Positions 5,236 to 54,525 of a stretch of 64,000 nucleotides of DNA are shown here, in pieces. Each line of letters starts with the position of its first letter. Position 1 is the first letter of the stretch. The stretch is from an uncultured Holdemania sp. (GTDB lineage: Bacteria > Bacillota_I > Bacilli_A > Erysipelotrichales > Erysipelotrichaceae). Where the stretch lies: the NCBI GenBank assembly GCA_964368495.1, contig CAYJAJ010000003.1, positions 776 through 64,775 of the forward strand, written 5' to 3'. Position numbers and translations under genes: made by a program. The notes beneath the pieces were generated by a model. The model was not told the DNA's origin. It saw only the letters and a program-made list of their open reading frames with translations, and did no database searches.

Positions 5236-5662
5236 AATCTTTACCTCGCTTACATTACTTTAACTTATATTTACTATAGTTTCAAGCTATAAAAATTCAA
5301 AAGAAAGGTGAATATTAGTGTTGATAGAAAGTGAGACAAATTAGTTGCCTAGAAACTGCATGTGAGTGATTTTATTCAGATGGCTATCTTGCAAGAACAA
5401 ATGCCAACAAAATGAATAAAGTACACCACAATGGTGATAGAATTAACAATCATGAATTAGAAGAATACATTTAATTGTTACTAAAGAAAACTTAGATTAT
5501 TAAGAAAAAAAACTTTAATATGGGCTTTGTTTATGGTATTATTTTTGTGTGAAAGGACGAGATTTTTATGAAGAAAAAATACATTAATTTACCGTTTCTT
5601 TCAAAATGTGAATAAAGTTAACATAGGTATTTAATGTGCCTGTGTTTTTCTTTTATTATTTG

Positions 5663-5733
5663 CTATTGTATAAGTGAGGTAATATGGACCTCAAGTTTCT
5701 ACCTTGTTACCGTAAATGACAAGACTACAAAGT
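5663..5733 (+). promoter_or_regulatory. Purine (guanine-class) riboswitch aptamer
   Basis: CTATTGTATAAGTGAGGTAATATGGACCTCAAGTTTCTACCTTGTTACCGTAAATGACAAGACTACAAAG. It matches the conserved purine-riboswitch core (UAUAA, AUAUGG, AGUUUCUACC, CCGUAAAU, GACUA) with P1/P2/P3 pairings intact. The C in GACUA predicts guanine specificity. Confidence 0.88.
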
Positions 5734-5754
5734 AACAGTTTTTATGTTGCTTTG

Positions 5755-5805: not shown

Positions 5806-6294
5806 ATGAGCGAAAAACCGGTAGTTGGAATCTTAATGGGTTCAAAAAGTGATTTAGACACACTAGAGCACACATTCAAACAATTGGAGGAATTTGGGAT
5901 TCCTTATGAAAAAAATGTTCTAAGTGCTCACCGCACACCTGATGAAACAATTGAATATGCAAAAACAGCATACAATCGTGGATTAAAAGTGATTATTGCT
6001 GCTGCAGGAGGAGCTGCTCATTTAGCAGGAGTTGTTGCAGGATGTACAACATTACCGGTAATCGGTATTCCTATTAAATCAAGTACACTTGATGGGCTTG
6101 ATAGCTTGCTTTCAATTGTTCAAATGCCTGCAGGAGTTCCTGTTGCAACTGTTGCAATTGGTAAAGCAGGAGCAAAAAATGCTGCAGTTTTAACAGCGTC
6201 AATTTTAGGCGCATTTGATGAAAAATATCATGAAGTTATGCTTAAACATAAAGAAGATATGAAGAAAAATGTTTTAGAAAATATGAAAATCTAA
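5806..6294 (+). CDS. purE: 5-(carboxyamino)imidazole ribonucleotide mutase / AIR carboxylase catalytic subunit
   Basis: ORF 5761..6294 begins inside the riboswitch terminator. The ATG at 5806 behind AGAGGAG is the likely start. [16 protein letters not shown] and AGGAAHLAG motifs. Confidence 0.85.
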
Positions 6295-19946: not shown

Positions 19947-20034
19947 GAGGAGTTGGCCGAGCGGTTTAAGGCACCATCTTGGAAAGGTGGCGAAGTGAAA
20001 GCTTCCGTGAGTTCGAATCTCATGCTCCTCGCCA
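19947..20034 (+). tRNA. tRNA-Ser (anticodon GGA)
   Basis: Manual cloverleaf. Acceptor GAGGAGT/GCTCCTC, D arm GCC-GAGCGGTTTAA-GGC, anticodon stem CCATC/GGTGG with loop TTGGAAA (GGA). Long variable arm, T arm GTGAG-TTCGAAT-CTCAT, encoded CCA. Starts 5 nt after the CPBP stop. Confidence 0.9.
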
Positions 20035-35724: not shown

Positions 35725-36054
35725 ATGAGTAAAATGTGTAATTTAGATGTTCAGAATATTTTAGATATTGAATTTCATATCGATTTTAAAGGATATTCTG
35801 CAGTTGAAGTTGATCGTTTATTGGATATAGTTATTGAAGATTATCAAATCTATGATGAAAAAATTGCTTCAATGAATGAACAATTTATAGCACAAGAGAG
35901 AGTTATTGCCTCGTTAAAGGCAAAGATTATTGAACTTGAAGGTAAAGCGAAAGCATTTAAAGATACAGAAAATGAACCTGTCTCTCAATTAGATATTATT
36001 AAAAGAATTTCTAAGTTAGAGGAAGCTGTCTACAAGGAAAAAACAATTGATTAA
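35725..36054 (+). CDS. gpsB: Cell cycle protein GpsB (DivIVA-domain)
   Basis: 109 aa from the ATG at 35725. DVQNILDIEFHIDFKGYSAVEVDRLLDIVIEDYQ is the DivIVA/GpsB N-terminal domain, followed by a C-terminal coiled coil. gpsB-rnpB synteny as in Bacillus. Confidence 0.75.
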   Translation: MSKMCNLDVQNILDIEFHIDFKGYSAVEVDRLLDIVIEDYQIYDEKIASMNEQFIAQERVIASLKAKIIELEGKAKAFKDTENEPVSQLDIIKRISKLEEAVYKEKTID

Positions 36055-36398
36055 CATTCGGGTAATCGCTGGCTATTGCTAGAGGAAAGTCCATGCTCGC
36101 ACAATCTGAGATGATTGTAGTGTTTGTGCTAACTTAAAAAATAAGGTTAGGCAGGTAACTGACGGCTGAATGAACTCCTAAGGGAAACTATGGAGAACAT
36201 CTTTAAAAGTGTCACAGTGACGTAGTCTACTTGGAAACTTGTAGAGTGGAACGAGATAAACCCCACAAGCGAGAAACCCAAATTTGGTAGGGGAACTCTG
36301 TAAAGTGAATTGAAATGATACAGGGGCATACTTATTGTATGCAGATAAATGATTGCCACCTTGAAAAAGGGACAAAACATGGCTTATAGAATGTTGAT
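36050..36398 (+). ncRNA. rnpB: RNase P RNA, type B
   Basis: ATTAACATTCGGGTAATCGCTGG...GAGGAAAGTCCATGCTCGCAC...ACAAAACATGGCTTATAGAATGTTGAT. Conserved type-B core sequences. A 10-bp P1 pairs 36050..36059 with 36389..36398. About 349 nt. Confidence 0.9.
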
Positions 36399-45907: not shown

Positions 45908-48601
45908 ATGAAAAGCAAACAAATTTACTTAATATGTATTTTATTGATGAGTTTTATTAGTTATCCTGTGTTTGCACAAGATAGCCAATATGTTGTGAAG
46001 GACTTAATAAGTGATACAGTTGTAGCGACTGCAAGCACTATAAGTCAAGCAAATATAGTTTATGAAGAAAACAAACAGTTATATGAAGAATTGGCAATTT
46101 TACAAGATGAACGAATTATAGATGTTGAATATGGGATATTGTCTATACCAATTGATTCAGAAGGTTGCACATACAATTATGAATTTACAAACGATATCAC
46201 AAAACAGGCAGGTTATGTGAATGGATGTTATGGAAAAGATGCATTATTTTTGGGGATGAATGACTCAAAAACAAGTGTAAAGTTCATGATAAGCGGTGCA
46301 GTAGGTTGGGGAGATGCAGAAGATATTACAATCATTCCTTATTCAAAGATAAATCAATTGACTAGTTATGTTGTGATTGATGAAAATTTGTATCATCAAG
46401 TTAAAACAGATTTAAATAGCGATAAATATAATTCTTTAATTAATTTGGGGAATGCACCAGAGTATTTAGAAGAAAACAAAATTTATTTAAGTTATGATGG
46501 GCACTATTTTTATGATGAAGATCAATTTAGAGAAATGAGTGATGATGCTAGAAGTAATACATTCACATCTTCAATAAATGAATATGATCCTTTTTTTAAT
46601 TATTATCAGTATGTAACACATCGTACAATAAGCAATGTAAGTGAAGATATGTTAAAAGAGTATCTAAGAGATGAACTTAAAATAAGTGAATCAATAAGCA
46701 ATTACAACGATCAAAACAAAGATTCCATTCATGATGTTTTAACACAATCACAGTATTATAATTATGAAACATCATTTCATCAAAATCAAAATCGATTTGG
46801 GTCAAATGCATTGATGATGTTGGCTCTTTCCATGAATGAAAGTGCCACTGGAAGAAGTTCTTTAGCATATACAAGAAATAATTTGTTTGGTCACGCTGCT
46901 TATGATAGCGATGTAGAGAAAAATGCATCAAGATACTATAATGTATTTAATTCAGTTTATAGTCATGCAAAAAATTATATTTCTAAAAGTTATCTTAATC
47001 CAGATAAATTTCAATATCATGGTGGATATTTTGGCGATAAAGCAAGTGGTATGAATGTAAGTTATGCATCAGATCCTTACTGGGGAGAGAAAGCCGCTCA
47101 ACACTATTATCAACTTGATGAACAATTCGCTTTTGCTGACTTAAACAGTGTTGCACTTGCCATTAAAACATCTAATAAAAATATATCAATCTTTGATGAA
47201 AACAATGAAGTTTTGTATCGAAGTGGAAACAATCCTTACATGAGTTTTGTGGTGCTGGATGAAACAGATGAAATGTTTAAGATTCAAATTGATCCGGTAA
47301 TCTATGATGATTTCAATGATGAGGGAAGCTATGATTTTCAAAAAAATGTTGGATATATTTTTAAGGATGAAATCGATGTATTGTACAATGAAGACAAAAT
47401 TAGTGAAAATGAATATATTACTGTTACATTGGATGCAAATGGAGGTTATTTCTATAATGGAGAAGCTACTTTATCGTATCAAGTAAAAAAAGGTGATAAA
47501 ATTAGTGTTGAAATACCACTAAAAGAAAACGCCATCTTCGATGACTGGAATGAAGAAGTTAGTTATGCTGAAAATAATAATACATATGTTGCGAATTATA
47601 AAGAAATAGAATCAATAAATATGCACACTTTACCACCAACTATTTTAGAATACTATGACAGAATTGATTTAACAGGTGGTTCAATAGAGGTTGTTTATAA
47701 AAATAAAGAAACTGAGATAATTGAATTAAATAGTTCGATGGTATCGGGATATATAGTGAATGAAGTTGGTTTTCAAGATGTTGTTGTGAGTTATGGTGGA
47801 GCTAAGACCTCTTATGTTCTTGAAGTTTCGATGGAATTAGAGGAAGAACGTCTGCTAATCCTTGATTTAATTAGTCAGGTTTTTGAAAATTTAAATAAAG
47901 AAGGCGAATTCATAGAGGAAGATTTTAATTTGCTAGAAAAATTAAATAGTCATTTCTTAAGTTATGGGGTACCCTACATGACGTTTAATGAAACTAGAGC
48001 GTTAGATGAAATTTTCTACAACGCACTTAAAGATGATCTTCATACTGTTATATCAAAAAATGAGGTAAATCTTGCACTTAGTGGACTTTATCTACATGCA
48101 GACTACACTGAAGTTACAAAGGACAAATTTATCAAAGATACAATTCGTATAAGTTATGAGGATGCGAAGGGAAGTGAGCTTGTAAAAGATGTTTCCTCTG
48201 CTAACAATCTGGAAGTAGTACATTCTTTTAAACTAAATGGCAAGTACAATTTTGATGACTTAAGGTTAAATGATTATGTGTTAGTTTCACTTGATATTCC
48301 AGAAGGAATATCAAGCAATCAAATTATACAAGTACTTCAAGAAAGTGATGGCCATGTCATAAAATTATCTACGATTCAAACTGAAAATAAACTTGTATTC
48401 AAGACAAATGAATTCTCAACTTTCACAATTACGACAAGAAATTCTGTTAATGAATATAATTCAGAGGATGTTGTCGAAACAGTATATTTTGAAAATAATG
48501 GATTTAATATTTATGCTGTAATGAGCACTTTATTTATAGTGCTTGTTGTATCAATTTTATCAATTATTTTAATATTATATTCAAAGAAAAAGTTCAAATG
48601 A
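45908..48601 (+). CDS. Secreted, membrane-anchored cell-wall hydrolase-like protein (GH73 glucosaminidase domain plus Ig-like/beta-repeat domains)
   Basis: 897 aa. Signal peptide (LICILLMSFISYPVFAQD) and a glucosaminidase-like block (NALMMLALSMNESATGRSSLAYTRNNLFGHAAYD). Also a Listeria-Bacteroides-type repeat (VTLDANGGYF...FDDWN), a Big_3-like segment and a C-terminal TM anchor. Confidence 0.65.
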   Translation: MKSKQIYLICILLMSFISYPVFAQDSQYVVKDLISDTVVATASTISQANIVYEENKQLYEELAILQDERIIDVEYGILSIPIDSEGCTYNYEFTNDITKQAGYVNGCYGKDALFLGMNDSKTSVKFMISGAVGWGDAEDITIIPYSKINQLTSYVVIDENLYHQVKTDLNSDKYNSLINLGNAPEYLEENKIYLSYDGHYFYDEDQFREMSDDARSNTFTSSINEYDPFFNYYQYVTHRTISNVSEDMLKEYLRDELKISESISNYNDQNKDSIHDVLTQSQYYNYETSFHQNQNRFGSNALMMLALSMNESATGRSSLAYTRNNLFGHAAYDSDVEKNASRYYNVFNSVYSHAKNYISKSYLNPDKFQYHGGYFGDKASGMNVSYASDPYWGEKAAQHYYQLDEQFAFADLNSVALAIKTSNKNISIFDENNEVLYRSGNNPYMSFVVLDETDEMFKIQIDPVIYDDFNDEGSYDFQKNVGYIFKDEIDVLYNEDKISENEYITVTLDANGGYFYNGEATLSYQVKKGDKISVEIPLKENAIFDDWNEEVSYAENNNTYVANYKEIESINMHTLPPTILEYYDRIDLTGGSIEVVYKNKETEIIELNSSMVSGYIVNEVGFQDVVVSYGGAKTSYVLEVSMELEEERLLILDLISQVFENLNKEGEFIEEDFNLLEKLNSHFLSYGVPYMTFNETRALDEIFYNALKDDLHTVISKNEVNLALSGLYLHADYTEVTKDKFIKDTIRISYEDAKGSELVKDVSSANNLEVVHSFKLNGKYNFDDLRLNDYVLVSLDIPEGISSNQIIQVLQESDGHVIKLSTIQTENKLVFKTNEFSTFTITTRNSVNEYNSEDVVETVYFENNGFNIYAVMSTLFIVLVVSILSIILILYSKKKFK

Positions 48602-48625
48602 TTAGATTCACAATCTTTTTACAAT

Positions 48626-48639
48626 TGAAAGCGATTTCA
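48626..48639. promoter_or_regulatory. Catabolite-responsive element (cre, CcpA-type) upstream of the pfl locus
   Basis: TGAAAGCGATTTCA matches the commonly cited cre consensus TGWAANCGNTNWCA at all 14 positions. Palindromic arms TTGAAA/TTTCAA. Lies 78 nt upstream of the pflB ATG. Confidence 0.55.
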
Positions 48640-48716
48640 AATTTATTTGTGATTATTTTACTTTCTTTTGTGCTTAAAATAAAGTAAAATAATAGCGATA
48701 AATAAGGAGAATTAAA

Positions 48717-50774
48717 ATGAAAGAAATCTATAAAGGATTTAATGATGGAGTTTGGTCAAAGGAAATAAATGTTCGTAATTTCATTCAAAAAAATTATACT
48801 CCATATGATGGAGATGAGTCATTTTTATGTGAACCTACAAAAGCTACTGTTGAATTATGGAATCAAGTAATGGATTTAACAATGCAAGAAAGAGAAGCTG
48901 GTGGGGTTCTTGATATGGATACCAAAGTTATCTCTACAATTACTTCACATGCTGCGGGGTATTTGAATAAAGATTTGGAAACAATTGTTGGATTTCAAAC
49001 TGAGAAACCATTTAAAAGATCATTACAACCATATGGTGGTATTCGCATGGCCGAAAAAGCTTGTAGTGATAATGGGTATGAGGTAGCACAAGAAATCAGT
49101 GATTTTTTCAGCGTTCATCGCAAAACACATAATGCTGGTGTATTTGATGCCTATACTCCAGAAATGCGTGATTGTCGCTCAAGTCACATTATTACAGGAT
49201 TACCAGACGCTTACGGTCGTGGACGTATTATTGGGGATTATCGCCGTGTTGCTTTATATGGTGTCGATCGTTTAATTGAAGATAAACAAGCTCAAAAAGA
49301 TTCAACACGAACTATTATGTATTCGAATGTTATTCGTGAACGTGAAGAATTATCTGAACAAGTTCGTGCATTAAAAGATTTAAGAGAATTAGGAAAGATT
49401 TATGGCTTTGATATTTCAAAGCCTGCAAAAGATACAAAAGAAGCTATTCAATGGTTGTATTTTGGGTATCTAGCAGCTGTTAAAGAACAAAATGGTGCAG
49501 CAATGTCACTTGGTAGAACTTCTACATTTATTGATATTTATGCAGAAAGAGATTTACAAAATAATGTGTATACTGAAGAAGAGATTCAAGAATTTGTTGA
49601 TCACTTTGTAATGAAATTACGCTTAATTAAATTTGCACGTACCCCTGAATACAATGAATTATTCTCAGGAGATCCAACTTGGGTGACTGAGGTTCTAGGT
49701 GGTATCGGAATTGATGGGCGTCATTTAGTTACTAAAAGCTCATTCCGTTATTTACATACACTAAAAAATCTAGGAACTTCTCCTGAGCCAAATTTAACGG
49801 TTTTATGGAGTCCTCGCTTACCTATGAATTTTAAACGCTTCTGTGCAAAAACATCAATTGAATCATCATCCATTCAATATGAAAATGATGATTTAATGAG
49901 AGTTAGTCATGGTGATGATTATGCTATTGCATGCTGTGTTTCATCAATGATTTTAGGTAAAGAAATGCAATTTTTTGGAGCTCGTGCTAATTTAGCGAAA
50001 TGCTTGTTATATGCCATCAATGGTGGTGTTGATGAAATTTCAAAAAAACAAGTAGGACCTCGTTATAAAGCAGTTACAGGTGACTACCTTGAGTATGATG
50101 ATGTAATGGAAAAATATGAAGACATGATGAAATGGTTAGCACGCGTTTATGTTAATACATTAAACATCATTCATTATATGCATGATAAATATTGTTATGA
50201 AAAATTACAAATGTCATTGCACGATAAAAATGTAAAAAGATGGTTTGCTACAGGTATAGCAGGACTATCGGTAGTTGCAGATTCATTGTCAGCAATTAAA
50301 TACGGTAAAGTAAAAGTTATTCGTGATGAGGATGGAATTGTTGTTGATTATCAAATTGAAGGAGATTTCCCGAAATATGGTAATGATGATGATCGTGTTG
50401 ATGATATCGCTAATGAAATTGTATCGATGTTTATGGCATACATTCGTGGTAACCACACTTATCGTGGAGGAATTCCTACAACTTCAATTTTAACAATTAC
50501 ATCGAATGTCGTTTATGGAAAAAACACTGGTTCAACACCTGATGGTAGAAAGTTTGGAGAACCATTTGCACCTGGTGCAAACCCAATGCATCGTCGTGAT
50601 GAAAAAGGTGCGGTTGCATCATTAGCATCAGTTTCAAAATTACCGTTCTCTGATGCACAAGATGGTATTTCAAATACATTCTCAATCGTTCCTAATGCAC
50701 TTGGAAAAGAAATAATTATGGGTTCAGAAATTGATGTTGATATGGATCTTGATGAGGTTGAAAATAACGAATGA
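48717..50774 (+). CDS. pflB: Pyruvate formate-lyase catalytic core, lacking the C-terminal glycyl-radical domain
   Basis: 685 aa. Collinear with PflB from the N-terminus ([25 protein letters not shown]) through the active-site IACCVSSM to [10 protein letters not shown]. It then has a 21-aa acidic tail and a TGA. There is no RVSGY motif in this ORF. Confidence 0.85.
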
Positions 50775-51010
50775 GCCAAAATAAGCTGATTGATGATATT
50801 ATTGCACAACTTGATAAAAATATTGAAAATGGAATTGGTCATGTAAATGTACAAGTAAAGGGTAATGATGTGACACTTGAAAAAATTACTAAAAATGAAA
50901 CAGATTTTCAAAAAGAAGTAGAAAAATTTAGTAGTGTTGAATGCCAAGGAAATACGGCATGCTGTAGTCCAACATTAATGGATGGACTAGATATCGTGGA
51001 GGAAGAATAA
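50771..51010 (+). CDS. 79-aa paralogue of the PFL glycyl-radical domain lacking the radical glycine
   Basis: The ATG overlaps the pflB-core TGA (ATGA). Same length as the next ORF and collinear with it ([24 protein letters not shown] vs [23 protein letters not shown]). It has EKFSSVE where RVSGYAV is expected, and contains TACCSPT. Confidence 0.6.
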
Positions 51011-51011
51011 G

Positions 51012-51251
51012 ATGGAACAAAAAAATCAAATTGATAATTTAGTGCAATTACTAGATGGTTATATTGAAAAAGGTGGTCATCATTTAAATGTAAATGTATT
51101 TACAAAAGAAACATTATTAGATGCACAAAAACATCCTGAGAAATATCCACAATTAACAGTGCGTGTTAGTGGATATGCGGTTAATTTTAATAAATTAACT
51201 AAAGCTCAACAAGATGAAGTTATCACAAGAACATTTCATGAACAAATCTAA
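51012..51251 (+). CDS. Stand-alone glycyl-radical domain (GrcA-like; equals the detached PflB C-terminus)
   Basis: 79 aa. GGAGGA SD 8 nt upstream of the [58 protein letters not shown] is the canonical PFL glycyl-radical signature. Confidence 0.85.
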
Positions 51252-51253
51252 TT

Positions 51254-52003
51254 ATGTTACAGGGTAAAATTCATTCTGTAGAAAGTTTTGGAACAGTAGA
51301 CGGACCTGGGATACGCTTTATTGTGTTTATGCAAGGTTGTCCACTTCGCTGTTTATACTGCCATAACCCAGATACGTGGAGTATGCATAGTGAGACATTA
51401 ATGAGTATTTCTGAAATATTAAATCAATATAAGCGCAATGAACAATTTTATCGTGATGGTGGAATTACATGTACTGGTGGAGAACCGCTTTTACAAATAG
51501 ATTTCCTGATTGAACTATTTCGTGAGGCAAAAAAACTAGGTATTCATACTTGTCTTGATACATCAGGGATTTGCTTTACACGCTTACAAATTGATAAATA
51601 TAAACAACTTGCGTCTGTGTGTGATTTAGTGCTTTTGGATATCAAACATATCGACGAAGAGATACATCATAAATTAACTGGAAGCAGTAATAAAAACATT
51701 CAAGAATTTTTAGCGTTTTTAGATGAAGAAAATGTTCCGGTTTGGATTCGTCATGTTTATATTGATGAACAATTTAATAGCAAAGAAATGTTAAGAAAGT
51801 TAGGACAGTTTATTGGTCAATACAGAAATGTGAAAGCCGTTGATGTGCTTCCGTATCATACTATGGGAAAAAATAAGTATGAAAAGTTGAATATTGAATA
51901 TCCATTACAAGGATATAAAGATGTAAATATTGAAACTGCAAAATCAGCACGAAATGAAATTTTACGTGGTATCAAAGATATTAGGACAACAAAAAATAAG
52001 TAA
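51254..52003 (+). CDS. pflA: Pyruvate formate-lyase activating enzyme (radical SAM)
   Basis: 249 aa. SVESFGTVDGPGIRFIVFMQGCPLRCLYCHNPDTW (CxxxCxxC) and TCTGGEPLLQ. Confidence 0.92.
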   Translation: MLQGKIHSVESFGTVDGPGIRFIVFMQGCPLRCLYCHNPDTWSMHSETLMSISEILNQYKRNEQFYRDGGITCTGGEPLLQIDFLIELFREAKKLGIHTCLDTSGICFTRLQIDKYKQLASVCDLVLLDIKHIDEEIHHKLTGSSNKNIQEFLAFLDEENVPVWIRHVYIDEQFNSKEMLRKLGQFIGQYRNVKAVDVLPYHTMGKNKYEKLNIEYPLQGYKDVNIETAKSARNEILRGIKDIRTTKNK

Positions 52004-52006
52004 GTA

Positions 52007-52047
52007 ATCACACTTCATTAATTTGAATAATGGAGTGTGATTTTTTT
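52007..52047 (+). terminator. Intrinsic terminator after pflA
   Basis: 14-bp stem ATCACACTTCATTA / TAATGGAGTGTGAT (one G-U pair), loop atttgaa, followed by T6. Confidence 0.85.
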
Positions 52048-52259
52048 AATTTATAAAAATCGTTAGTATTTAACAATTAGTGGTGCTTTGTAGAATTTCT
52101 ATAGTATAATAGATATTGTGAAAAACAGAATCAAGATTCATAAATCAGTTTAAGTTAAAGACGAGATAAAACAATAAAGATTAAAATGAAACCATTTCTT
52201 TTTGTTTTATGTAACATTATTTGCAAAACAGGTTGGTTATAAAAATGGAGGAAAATTGC

Positions 52260-53330
52260 ATGAAACAAATGATGTGGGCTATAGTTAAAGATAAGATGGA
52301 TGTTGGAGTAACGTTAAAACAAGTACCAGTACCTGAAGTAAAAAAAAATGATATTAAAATAAAAATTAAAACAGCATCAATATGCGGTACAGATGTCCAT
52401 ATCTACATTTGGAATGATTGGGCAAAAAAGACAATTAAACCTGGACAAGTTATTGGACATGAATATGTAGGTGAAATAGTTGAAATTGGCGAAAATGTAG
52501 AAGGATTCAATATTGGAGATATAGTAAGTGGAGAAGGTCATATTGTATGTGGACATTGTAGAAATTGTTTAGCAGGGAACTATCATTTGTGTCCTAATAC
52601 ATCGGGAGTCGGAGTTAATCGTGATGGTGCATTCGCAGAATATTTGGTTATTCCATCAAAAAATGCATGGCATGTCAATCCTGAAGTCAAAGAAGAATTG
52701 TATTCATGTTATGATCCATTTGGAAATGCTGTGCACACTGCACTTGCTTATCCGTTAGTTGGAGAGGATGTCTTAATTACTGGTGCAGGACCAATTGGTT
52801 GTATGGCTGCTGCCATCGCTCGACATGTTGGTGCAAGACATGTTGTAGTTACAGATGTGAATGAGTATCGTTTGGAGCTTGCAAAAAAATTAGGGGCTAC
52901 ATGCACCGTAAATGTTGCAAAAGAAAAAATAGAAGATGCTATGAAAAAGCTCAAAATGAAAGAAGGTTTTGATGTTGGGCTTGAAATGTCAGGAAATAAA
53001 TATGCTTTTCATGATATGGTTCATGCTATGAGTAATGGTGGTAAAATTGCTGTGCTTGGATTACTTCCATCAAATACATCAATTAATTGGGAAGAAGTTA
53101 TTTTTAACCAACTCACAATCCGTGGAATATATGGACGAAAAATATGGGATACATGGTATAAAATGGACATGATGATTCAAAGTGGATTGAATATTGAGCC
53201 AATCATAACTCACCACTTTGATGCAATTGATTATGAAAAAGGGTTTGAGATAATGGTAAGTGGAAAAAGTGGTAAAGTTGTGCTCGATTTTACTAAATTA
53301 AAAGATTTTAAAGGAGCGAATTATGAATAA
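52260..53330 (+). CDS. tdh: L-threonine 3-dehydrogenase (zinc-dependent)
   Basis: ORF trimmed to the ATG at 52260 (GGAGGA 7 nt upstream). [34 protein letters not shown] and GAGPIG motifs. Confidence 0.85.
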
Positions 53331-54525
53331 AACTGAGGCATTAAAGTATTATAAGGATACGGTTGAATCAATTATTGATGATGGGCTTTTTAAAGGGGAA
53401 AGTCCAATTTCATCATCTCAAAGTGCACACATTAAACTAAGTAATGGCAAAGAAGTTTTGAATATGTGTGCAAATAATTACTTGGGACTTGGCAATAATC
53501 AAAAATGTATCGATGCAGCTAAAAAAACAGTTGATGAAAAAGGCTATGGATTAGCTTCCGTACGCTTTATTTGTGGTACGCAGGATATACATAATCAATT
53601 AGAAAAAAATATAAGTGAATTTTTAAATATGGATGATACCATTTTATATAGTTCATGCTATGATGCAAACGGAGGTTTATTTGAAACACTTTTAACTGCA
53701 GAAGATGCAATTATAAGCGATGAATTAAACCATGCTTCTATTATTGATGGTATACGCCTGTGTAAAGCAAAAAGGTTTCGCTATAAAAACAACAACATGG
53801 ACGATTTAAGAAGTCAACTAGTTGCTGCAGATGAAGCAGGAGCGAGAATTAAAATGATTGCGACAGATGGTGTGTTTTCAATGGATGGAATTATTGCTAA
53901 TTTAAAAGATATCTGTGATTTGGCAGAAGAATTTAATGCATTAGTTATGGTGGATGATTCTCATTCAGTTGGTTTTGTAGGTAAAACTGGAAAAGGAACT
54001 GCAGAATATTGTGATGTGATGGGACGTGTAGACATTATTACTGGTACCTTAGGTAAGGCGTTAGGAGGAGCTTCAGGCGGGTTTACTTCGGCTAGAAAAG
54101 AAATCGTTGATTTGCTTCGTCAAAGAAGTCGCCCCTATTTGTTTTCGAATACTTTAGCACCGTTTATTGTAGGAGCTAGCATTGAAGTGTTTAATTTAAT
54201 TAGCCATGATAAGTCACTACGCGACACTTTGGAGCATTTAACAAAAACATATCGTGATGCACTCACTGAAGCTGATTTTGACATTATTGATGGGGTTCAT
54301 CCTATCGTACCAATTATGCTATACGATGAAAAATTAGCTGCAAAATTTGCAAAAAAAATGATGGATAAAGGTGTGTATGTTGTGTCTTTTTCTTATCCTG
54401 TTGTCCCAAAAGGGAAAGCACGAATTAGAACTCAAGTAAGTGCTGCTCATACAAAAGAGGATATTGATTTTGTTGTTAAATGCTTGAAGGAAGTACGAGA
54501 AGAAATAAACCAGGAATTGAAATAA
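53323..54525 (+). CDS. kbl: Glycine C-acetyltransferase (2-amino-3-ketobutyrate CoA ligase)
   Basis: 400 aa. [29 protein letters not shown] (PLP lysine). Overlaps tdh by 8 nt. Confidence 0.88.

Follow-up and report, generated by a model that had tools for sequence, protein, structure and literature searches.

A Holdemania operon encoding pyruvate formate-lyase as a core protein and a separate glycyl-radical protein

Results

A four-cistron operon for pyruvate formate-lyase

The DNA analyzed here, a 64,000-nt stretch of contig CAYJAJ010000003.1 from an uncultured Holdemania sp. (assembly GCA_964368495.1; hereafter the window, whose positions are used throughout), carries an operon in which pyruvate formate-lyase (PFL) is divided between two genes. 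The operon comprises four cistrons, all on the + strand. The first, pflB (48717..50774), encodes a core protein of 685 amino acids (aa), assigned from the table of open reading frames (ORFs) and from profile searches, which has the ten-stranded PFL-type barrel and the pair Cys406/Cys407 and is without the glycyl-radical loop. It is followed by a middle gene (50771..51010; 240 nt) for a conserved uncharacterized protein of 79 aa, by a minigene (51012..51251) for a 79 aa glycyl-radical subunit of the GrcA3 family with an RVSGY motif, and by pflA (51254..52003), which encodes the 249 aa PFL-activating radical-SAM enzyme.

The junctions in the raw sequence are tight. The ATG of the middle gene overlaps the core stop codon TGA (50772..50774) as ATGA, the middle gene and the minigene meet at TAAgATG, and the minigene and pflA meet at TAAttATG, with pflA starting 2 nt after the minigene TAA. 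A Shine-Dalgarno sequence, AAGGAG (48704..48709), lies 7 nt 5′ of the core ATG, and a second, GGAGGA (50998..51003), lies 8 nt 5′ of the minigene ATG. Between the core start and the pflA stop, no terminator-like site was found on the + strand. The sole terminator-like hairpin on that strand from the core start to the end of the scanned region is found just after pflA (52006..52052), where a 15-pair stem (52006..52042) followed by TTTTTAATTT, with its T-run, closes the operon. A search of Rfam matched no family within the operon. An initial annotation of this locus had given the same positions for the core, its TGA, the minigene with GGAGGA 8 nt from its ATG, and pflA 2 nt further on, all of which hold. 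Its three-cistron arrangement has to be extended to four, since what it had treated as a mere gap of 240 nt is the conserved ORF of the middle gene, which had been overlooked.

Core and minigene divide one PFL between them

The core matches the Pfam family PF02901 with 723 bits and the PFL model TIGR01255 with 1081.2 bits, above the equivalog cutoff of 994.2, and covers positions 2–662 of the 744 in that model. The minigene takes positions 663–743. The Pfam Gly_radical domain is divided in the same manner, with positions 1–48 in the core and 49–106 in the minigene. The PFL profile is thus partitioned cleanly between the two proteins, with no loss and no overlap. This bears out the earlier description of the core as PFL-like through ACCVS and without a radical domain, with the missing part on the minigene.

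The same division is seen in alignments with the E. coli enzyme (1H16). Residues 4–665 of the core align with residues 10–677 of E. coli PFL (E 1.5e-290) and residues 8–77 of the minigene product with residues 683–757 (E 1.4e-23), such that Gly54 (codon 51171..51173) falls on the radical glycine, Gly734. The core follows PFL up to residue 664 and then runs into an acidic tail. The two adjacent catalytic cysteines are kept within the motif AIACCVS (codons 49932..49937), corresponding to C418/C419 of E. coli, and are invariant in 75 related cores; mean column identity of the core among 20 homologs is 88%, again with an invariant Cys pair. There is no RVSGY in the core, and the glycyl-radical loop that a canonical PFL has on the same chain is found on the separate 79 aa ORF. 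In terms of the fold, the core is without the last barrel strand and the glycine finger, and GrcA3 brings a helix, the strand GGHHLNVNV, the RVSGY loop, and the C-terminal helix.

The minigene product is a full-length member of the family NF038360 (GrcA3), with 165.8 bits against a cutoff of 158 over positions 2–78 of 78. It falls below the model for E. coli-type GrcA, TIGR04365 (95.6 bits against a cutoff of 170), of which it covers only positions 67–125 of 126, and aligns with residues 68–126 of YfiD. In contrast to YfiD, it is without the disordered N-terminal half of ∼60 aa and adds a helix before the strand. Its cluster at 90% identity has 633 members; seven of the 40 members read carry a source name, which is GrcA, GrcA3, or “pyruvate-formate lyase.” The pflA product matches TIGR02493 with 286 bits (cutoff 231.75), together with Radical_SAM and Fer4_12. 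No second PFL is found in the window.

The split is shared by related bacteria

Relatives were collected by scanning the core protein against one genome per species (GTDB representatives) and keeping the 80 best loci. The gene is split at the same point in 78 of them, into a core that lacks RVSGY and an independent ORF of ∼80 aa in which this motif is found. These loci come from Lachnospiraceae, Oscillospiraceae/Acutalibacteraceae, Erysipelotrichaceae, other Bacilli, Atopobiaceae, Collinsella, and Spirochaetes (Sphaerochaetaceae and relatives). When the core was compared with the protein database, the 120 best matches were nearly all 679–706 aa long, and the closest named ones, from the cultured Erysipelotrichaceae Holdemania filiformis and H. 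massiliensis, have 685 aa and 85% identity. In H. massiliensis the four genes follow one another in the identical order and encode proteins of 685, 79, 80, and 266 aa. Three of the 120 are longer (P0289, P0290, and P0373, with 805, 821, and 740 aa) and contain exact internal duplications of 50–130 residues; these public metagenome predictions are most likely assembly artifacts. Judged from these comparisons, the locus is an ordinary member of a very widespread split-PFL architecture and no peculiarity of this genome.

The minigene is under strong purifying selection, with a median pairwise ratio of nonsynonymous to synonymous substitution rates (dN/dS) of 0.07, and a Shine-Dalgarno-like site precedes 65 of the 67 distinct minigenes among the relatives. 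A stop within a normally continuous gene typically marks an error of sequencing or assembly, or a recent mutation turning a single pflB into a pseudogene, and the public metagenome proteins of this family do include the duplicated artifacts described above. Such an origin is nevertheless barely conceivable here, and is in practice refuted by the comparative data: the architecture is common to 78 of 80 independent genomes and to isolate genomes, all parts are under purifying selection, each cistron has its own ribosome binding site, and the stretch between core and minigene encodes a conserved protein in another frame. The initial annotation had argued for a functional split with the radical module supplied in trans, rather than a pseudogene or an error, and this is upheld by the conservation of the split among the related genomes, H. 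massiliensis included, by selection and initiation sites at the minigene, and by the adjacency of pflA.

A single full-length PflB might instead be made by recoding, with TGA read as tryptophan, a programmed frameshift, or translational bypass of the 240 nt. The DNA is AT-rich (32% GC), and core and minigene share one reading frame, 237 nt apart. An alternative code or read-through was rejected: a TGA read as sense meets a TAA 24 codons on (50844..50846), and TGA closes five of the 49 long ORFs of the window and is thus an ordinary stop. Fusion by frameshift or bypass was rejected as well, on the grounds that the offset from core stop to minigene in the relatives varies from about −43 to +650 nt and falls in every frame with no common slippery site, and that each gene has its own ribosome binding site. 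The minigenes start with their own ATG and Shine-Dalgarno sequence, and the intervening ORF is conserved and under selection. Taken together, these points leave recoding highly improbable.

Single-chain PFL is found in two of the 80 loci only (L034, 4001..6226, and L036, 4001..6229). Both fall within the split clade in a neighbor-joining tree of the cores, built with no bootstrap, and may be secondary re-fusions.

The middle gene encodes a conserved small protein related to GrcA3

Orthologs of the middle gene occupy the same position in about 30 of the 80 loci, and relatives with ∼150–650 nt between core and minigene hold an ORF at the same place. As a single sequence, the middle protein recovered itself only in a homology search. 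A family profile was built from synteny-derived sequences, with an alignment of 28 proteins, and the window protein matches this profile, which includes it, with E 3.7e-24. Residues D15, H24, N26, C58, and C64 are invariant among the 28 sequences, and G23, A63, P67, T68, L69, and G72 nearly so; the window protein aligns over its full length and has all five invariant residues. The family consensus reads M-D-x-K-x-x-IDDLVKMLD-x-x-MA-x-GVGH-x-NVD...VQTMGC-x-DCSRTPLACSVPTL-x-x-GLDD. Its members have 60–85 aa and combine an N terminus of the form (I/V)DDLVxxLD...G-x-G-H-x-N-V with a C terminus of the form C-x4-6-AC-xx-PTL-xx-GLD, which in the window is a Cys motif extending from C58-QGNTA-C64 onward (50942..50992, from the 28-sequence alignment). 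The median dN/dS of the middle gene is 0.26, and a Shine-Dalgarno-like site lies 5′ of 24 of 27.

A search with this profile returned 2087 clusters at E ≤ 1e-3. Those listed are about 67–77 aa long and have no Pfam domain, and wherever a source name is given it reads “hypothetical protein.” When the cluster representatives were searched exhaustively with HMMER, 227 families at 50% identity were recovered, and the listed ones are nearly all 36–140 aa long. One candidate with nine matches to the profile (P0232, 813 aa) was rejected as a glutamate-rich coiled-coil repeat protein with spurious similarity. Three ORFs of 88–140 aa (P0157, P0166, and P0195) end, in their last ∼30–40 residues, in the middle-protein C terminus of the Lachnospiraceae type (VQTMGC.DCSRTPLACSVPTL..GLDD) and have unrelated N termini; they are probably miscalled starts or chimeric contigs, not new architectures.

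The N-terminal part of the middle protein resembles that of GrcA3. The first 33 residues of the two proteins match in a profile-profile comparison (hhalign probability 96.5%, E 7.9e-10, 33 columns), with the GrcA3-like helix-strand segment at residues 2–34 (50774..50872) in the window protein. The shared segment corresponds to the helix and the GGHHLNVNV strand, at about residues 683–712 of E. coli PFL, and 27 of the 28 family members weakly match NF038360. Past residue 34 the middle protein has no similarity to the glycine loop. At the DNA level, no significant repeat was found between middle gene and minigene, the likeness being visible at the profile level only. On the strength of the profile match, the N terminus of the middle protein is a paralog of the putative docking segment of GrcA3.

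Comparison of the middle protein with Pfam and NCBIfam gave no significant match to the small subunits of multi-subunit glycyl radical enzymes. Nor was a core cysteine column found that is specific to the lineages with the Cys motif, hence there is no evidence of a disulfide or metal partner for the motif in the core.

A cysteine motif occurs on the middle protein or on the core tail

Three layouts are found among the related loci. In the first, as in the window, a short acidic tail of the core is followed by the middle gene and then by GrcA3 (about 30 of 80). In the second there is no middle gene, and the Cys motif is fused to the core tail (31 of 80); examples of such tails are FAGDIEVDLDCSNGACASPTLFEGLD and a shorter form, EPDCACCEPN. 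The third has the short tail alone (about 17 of 80) and comes mostly from Collinsella, one over-sampled lineage. The first two layouts are interleaved in the midpoint-rooted core tree described above. Their distribution suggests that the Cys motif has repeatedly been converted between non-covalent and covalent tethering, and the piece whose function is retained seems to be the Cys motif rather than the helix-strand segment.

The acidic C-terminal tail of the window core (50709..50771), which the initial annotation had taken as unrelated sequence, is in fact typical of split cores when the tails of relatives are compared. Their consensus is K-E-D-x-V-F-x-G-D-I-E-L-D-L, and Holdemania filiformis has KEIITSGDLEVELELDEIESNE as its tail. 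The tail is absent from both unsplit relatives (L034 and L036). The split-core consensus, in the form K-E-D-Q-V-F-A-G-D-I-E-L-D (50709..50750 in the window), is loosely like residues 678–694 of E. coli PFL, KDDEVRKTNLAGLMDGY. In the tail there may survive, in degenerate form, the helix with which both GrcA3 and the middle protein now begin. If so, one segment would be present three times, in the tail and at the starts of GrcA3 and of the middle protein, as the outcome of old tandem duplications, although the stretch is too short for a test.

In the Protein Data Bank (PDB), the core finds its best structural matches in 38lb (739 aa; 1139 bits) and 38la (687 aa; 1108 bits), both named “Formate acetyltransferase.” Both are from other organisms and are ∼70% identical to the core, an estimate made by eye on the alignment. 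The minigene matches neither, and only core chains matched the queries. Past the residues ALGK, the 38lb chain runs on as SGNVMFGECDMCEMKELDDVSKIDFKTVDFTIENKPDCACAA, a Cys-bearing tail like those of split cores; the tail was mostly read using X-padded queries, as ALGKSGNVMFGECDMCEMKELDDVSKIDFKTVDFTIENKPDCACAA. The chain is 83% identical to Atopobiaceae/Olsenella cores, and from its sequence 38lb looks like a natural split core with a cysteine tail. 38la is a different protein with its end at LGKE.

Genomic context of the operon

The perfect palindrome TTGAAAGCGATTTCAA (48625..48640, + strand), ∼80 nt 5′ of the operon, is a candidate cre site for CcpA, read from the sequence. It matches the cre consensus, WTGNAANCGNWNNCW, and this putative site suggests catabolite control of the pfl operon. 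Directly 5′ of the operon is an 897 aa ORF (45908..48601) with a signal-like N terminus and a C-terminal hydrophobic anchor, likely a surface protein. Directly 3′ of the pfl terminator, two ORFs overlap by 8 nt. By eye, the first (52221..53330) is a candidate threonine 3-dehydrogenase of the zinc alcohol-dehydrogenase type and the second (53323..54525) a candidate glycine C-acetyltransferase (Kbl), a couple that would turn threonine into glycine and acetyl-CoA. An antisense ORF of 144 aa (50513..50947, − strand) overlaps the middle gene and the last part of the core gene, both of them conserved, and is best taken as spurious.

The RNAs found elsewhere in the window include a class B RNase P RNA (36054..36391; 293 bits), consistent with a Bacillota origin, and a tRNA-Ser(GGA) (19947..20034). 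A purine riboswitch (5646..5747; 80.5 bits) lies upstream of the ORF at 5806..6294.

Discussion

PFL, which turns pyruvate and CoA into acetyl-CoA and formate, is central to pyruvate cleavage in many fermenting anaerobes. Textbooks and reviews describe one polypeptide that can be activated only once its radical domain has swung out of the barrel, and they regard the free radical modules of E. coli and phage T4 as an emergency repair kit. In the established mechanism, PflA abstracts a hydrogen from Gly734 and the radical is passed on to Cys419; at the radical glycine the chain is open to cleavage by oxygen. The locus described here departs from this picture, and we consider it likely, on comparative sequence evidence, that it encodes a functional, obligately two-subunit PFL together with an accessory protein.

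That a radical domain can act in trans is established for the E. coli system. GrcA restores formate production in vivo to full-length PflB carrying the G734A substitution (PMC12338860, Table 1) and supports PFL catalysis in trans both in vivo and in vitro (PMC12338860; PMC8683613). PflA can activate both E. coli GrcA/YfiD and T4 Y06I, and these modules return cleaved PFL to activity (PMC8683613). Because GrcA rescues PflB-G734A, intermolecular transfer from the glycine to Cys419 is sufficient, and a radical domain in trans can drive PFL.

Extrapolating from the anatomy, homologies, conservation, and selection set out above, we infer that PflA would take the hydrogen from Gly54 of free GrcA3. 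Because GrcA3 is a free small protein, this activation would need no opening of the large enzyme. The helix-strand segment of GrcA3 would then dock in the vacant socket of the core, the glycyl radical would move intermolecularly to Cys407, and catalysis would proceed as in canonical PFL. Cleavage by oxygen at the radical glycine would cost the small subunit alone, which could be exchanged and would then be the cheap, replaceable part that the initial annotation had supposed. In the first layout, the middle protein would present the two-cysteine motif, which in other lineages is linked covalently to the tail of the core.

Several points weigh against this interpretation. The searched literature holds no biochemical, expression, or structural evidence for this locus or for any split PFL. 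Structure prediction is uninformative: the AlphaFold2 (AF2) model of the core, for which the alignment was shallow and confined to sequences of 82% identity or more, has a predicted local distance difference test (pLDDT) score of 38.7, and the AF2 model of the middle protein, with a helix at residues 3–19 and a strand at residues 25–30, is of low confidence (pLDDT 57). If the middle protein takes the socket of GrcA3, a 1:1 assembly of core and GrcA3 would be contested. The Cys motif is, judging from lineages such as Collinsella that are without it entirely, dispensable to the split enzyme. An intact pflB is also possible elsewhere in this genome, beyond the 64 kb seen, or in the genomes of the relatives.

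The last point bears on whether the minigene is a YfiD-type spare part that serves an intact, full-length PFL from another place in the genome, with the adjacent core inactive or in another role. The NCBI name of NF038360, “autonomous glycyl radical cofactor GrcA3,” and the short name of the model, rad_fix_GrcA3, imply repair, and our view is confined to a 64-kb window of the genome. The validated free radical modules are repair parts: YfiD and Y06I are the only ones named as identified or validated in a review on glycyl radical enzymes from 2026 and in the YfiD paper of 2021 (PMC8683613), and both publications present them in that role. The window protein shares with these the form of a small free RVSGY protein, and theirs is activated by PflA and passes the radical intermolecularly to the cysteine pair of PFL. 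However, E. coli PflB keeps its own radical domain, with GrcA as a backup after oxygen cleavage, whereas the window core never has the domain and the small protein would be the sole source of the radical. A core without the domain stands next to the minigene in 78 of the 80 loci, which argues for an obligate subunit despite the repair label. The core is, moreover, highly conserved, with its invariant Cys pair and a TIGR01255 score above cutoff, and is always encoded directly 5′ of the minigene and pflA. Finally, the minigene starts in the PFL profile exactly where the core stops, a fit that a spare for an intact enzyme does not need; E. coli YfiD, by contrast, overlaps PFL only from about residue 693. 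With no second PFL in the window either, we regard the spare-part explanation as unlikely.

The two-subunit reading leaves the middle protein as an accessory, for which the candidate roles are a placeholder, an assembly factor, a redox switch, or another, with low confidence in any. It probably binds the socket of GrcA3 or an adjacent site on the core, because its N terminus is a copy of the GrcA3 docking segment. Somewhat more specifically, and as a tentative possibility, the middle protein or the fused Cys motif might be an undescribed regulatory or guard subunit, in which the helix-strand copy plugs the empty radical-domain socket of the core and two cysteines take the place of the glycine finger. 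Such a guard would act as a placeholder or chaperone until activated GrcA3 comes or, alternatively, would be a thiol switch through which the radical site is quenched or blocked under oxidizing conditions. If this were true, the enzyme would have an exchangeable “fuse” (GrcA3) and an exchangeable “dummy plug.”

Other glycyl radical enzymes combine a large subunit with small accessory ones, some of them cysteine-rich, as in benzylsuccinate synthase (alpha-beta-gamma) and 4-hydroxyphenylacetate decarboxylase (large and small). In those enzymes the large subunit retains the radical domain and the small ones carry Fe-S clusters, whereas in the operon described here the radical domain is itself a separate subunit and the middle protein has just two invariant cysteines.

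The split has already been met by curators and by at least one structural group, as the naming of NF038360 and the PDB cores without a radical domain indicate. Because the locus is an ordinary member of a widespread architecture, its individual novelty is lowered. Full-text literature searches turned up no publication that deals with a natural split PFL or with GrcA3, and the architecture, comprising an obligate trans radical subunit, the tail of the split core, and an accessory small protein or Cys motif, appears undescribed in the literature searched.

The comparative data show that in a large group of bacteria, many of which come from gut samples, PFL has its radical domain as a separate gene product, and the middle protein with its Cys motif forms an unannotated family specifically associated with split PFL. 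If the split enzyme is active, a radical module in trans would be the normal state in these organisms rather than a backup, and their enzymes would be natural models for the access of the activase to the glycine and for docking of the radical domain. Damage by oxygen would then be borne by a protein of 79 residues and not by a chain of ∼760.

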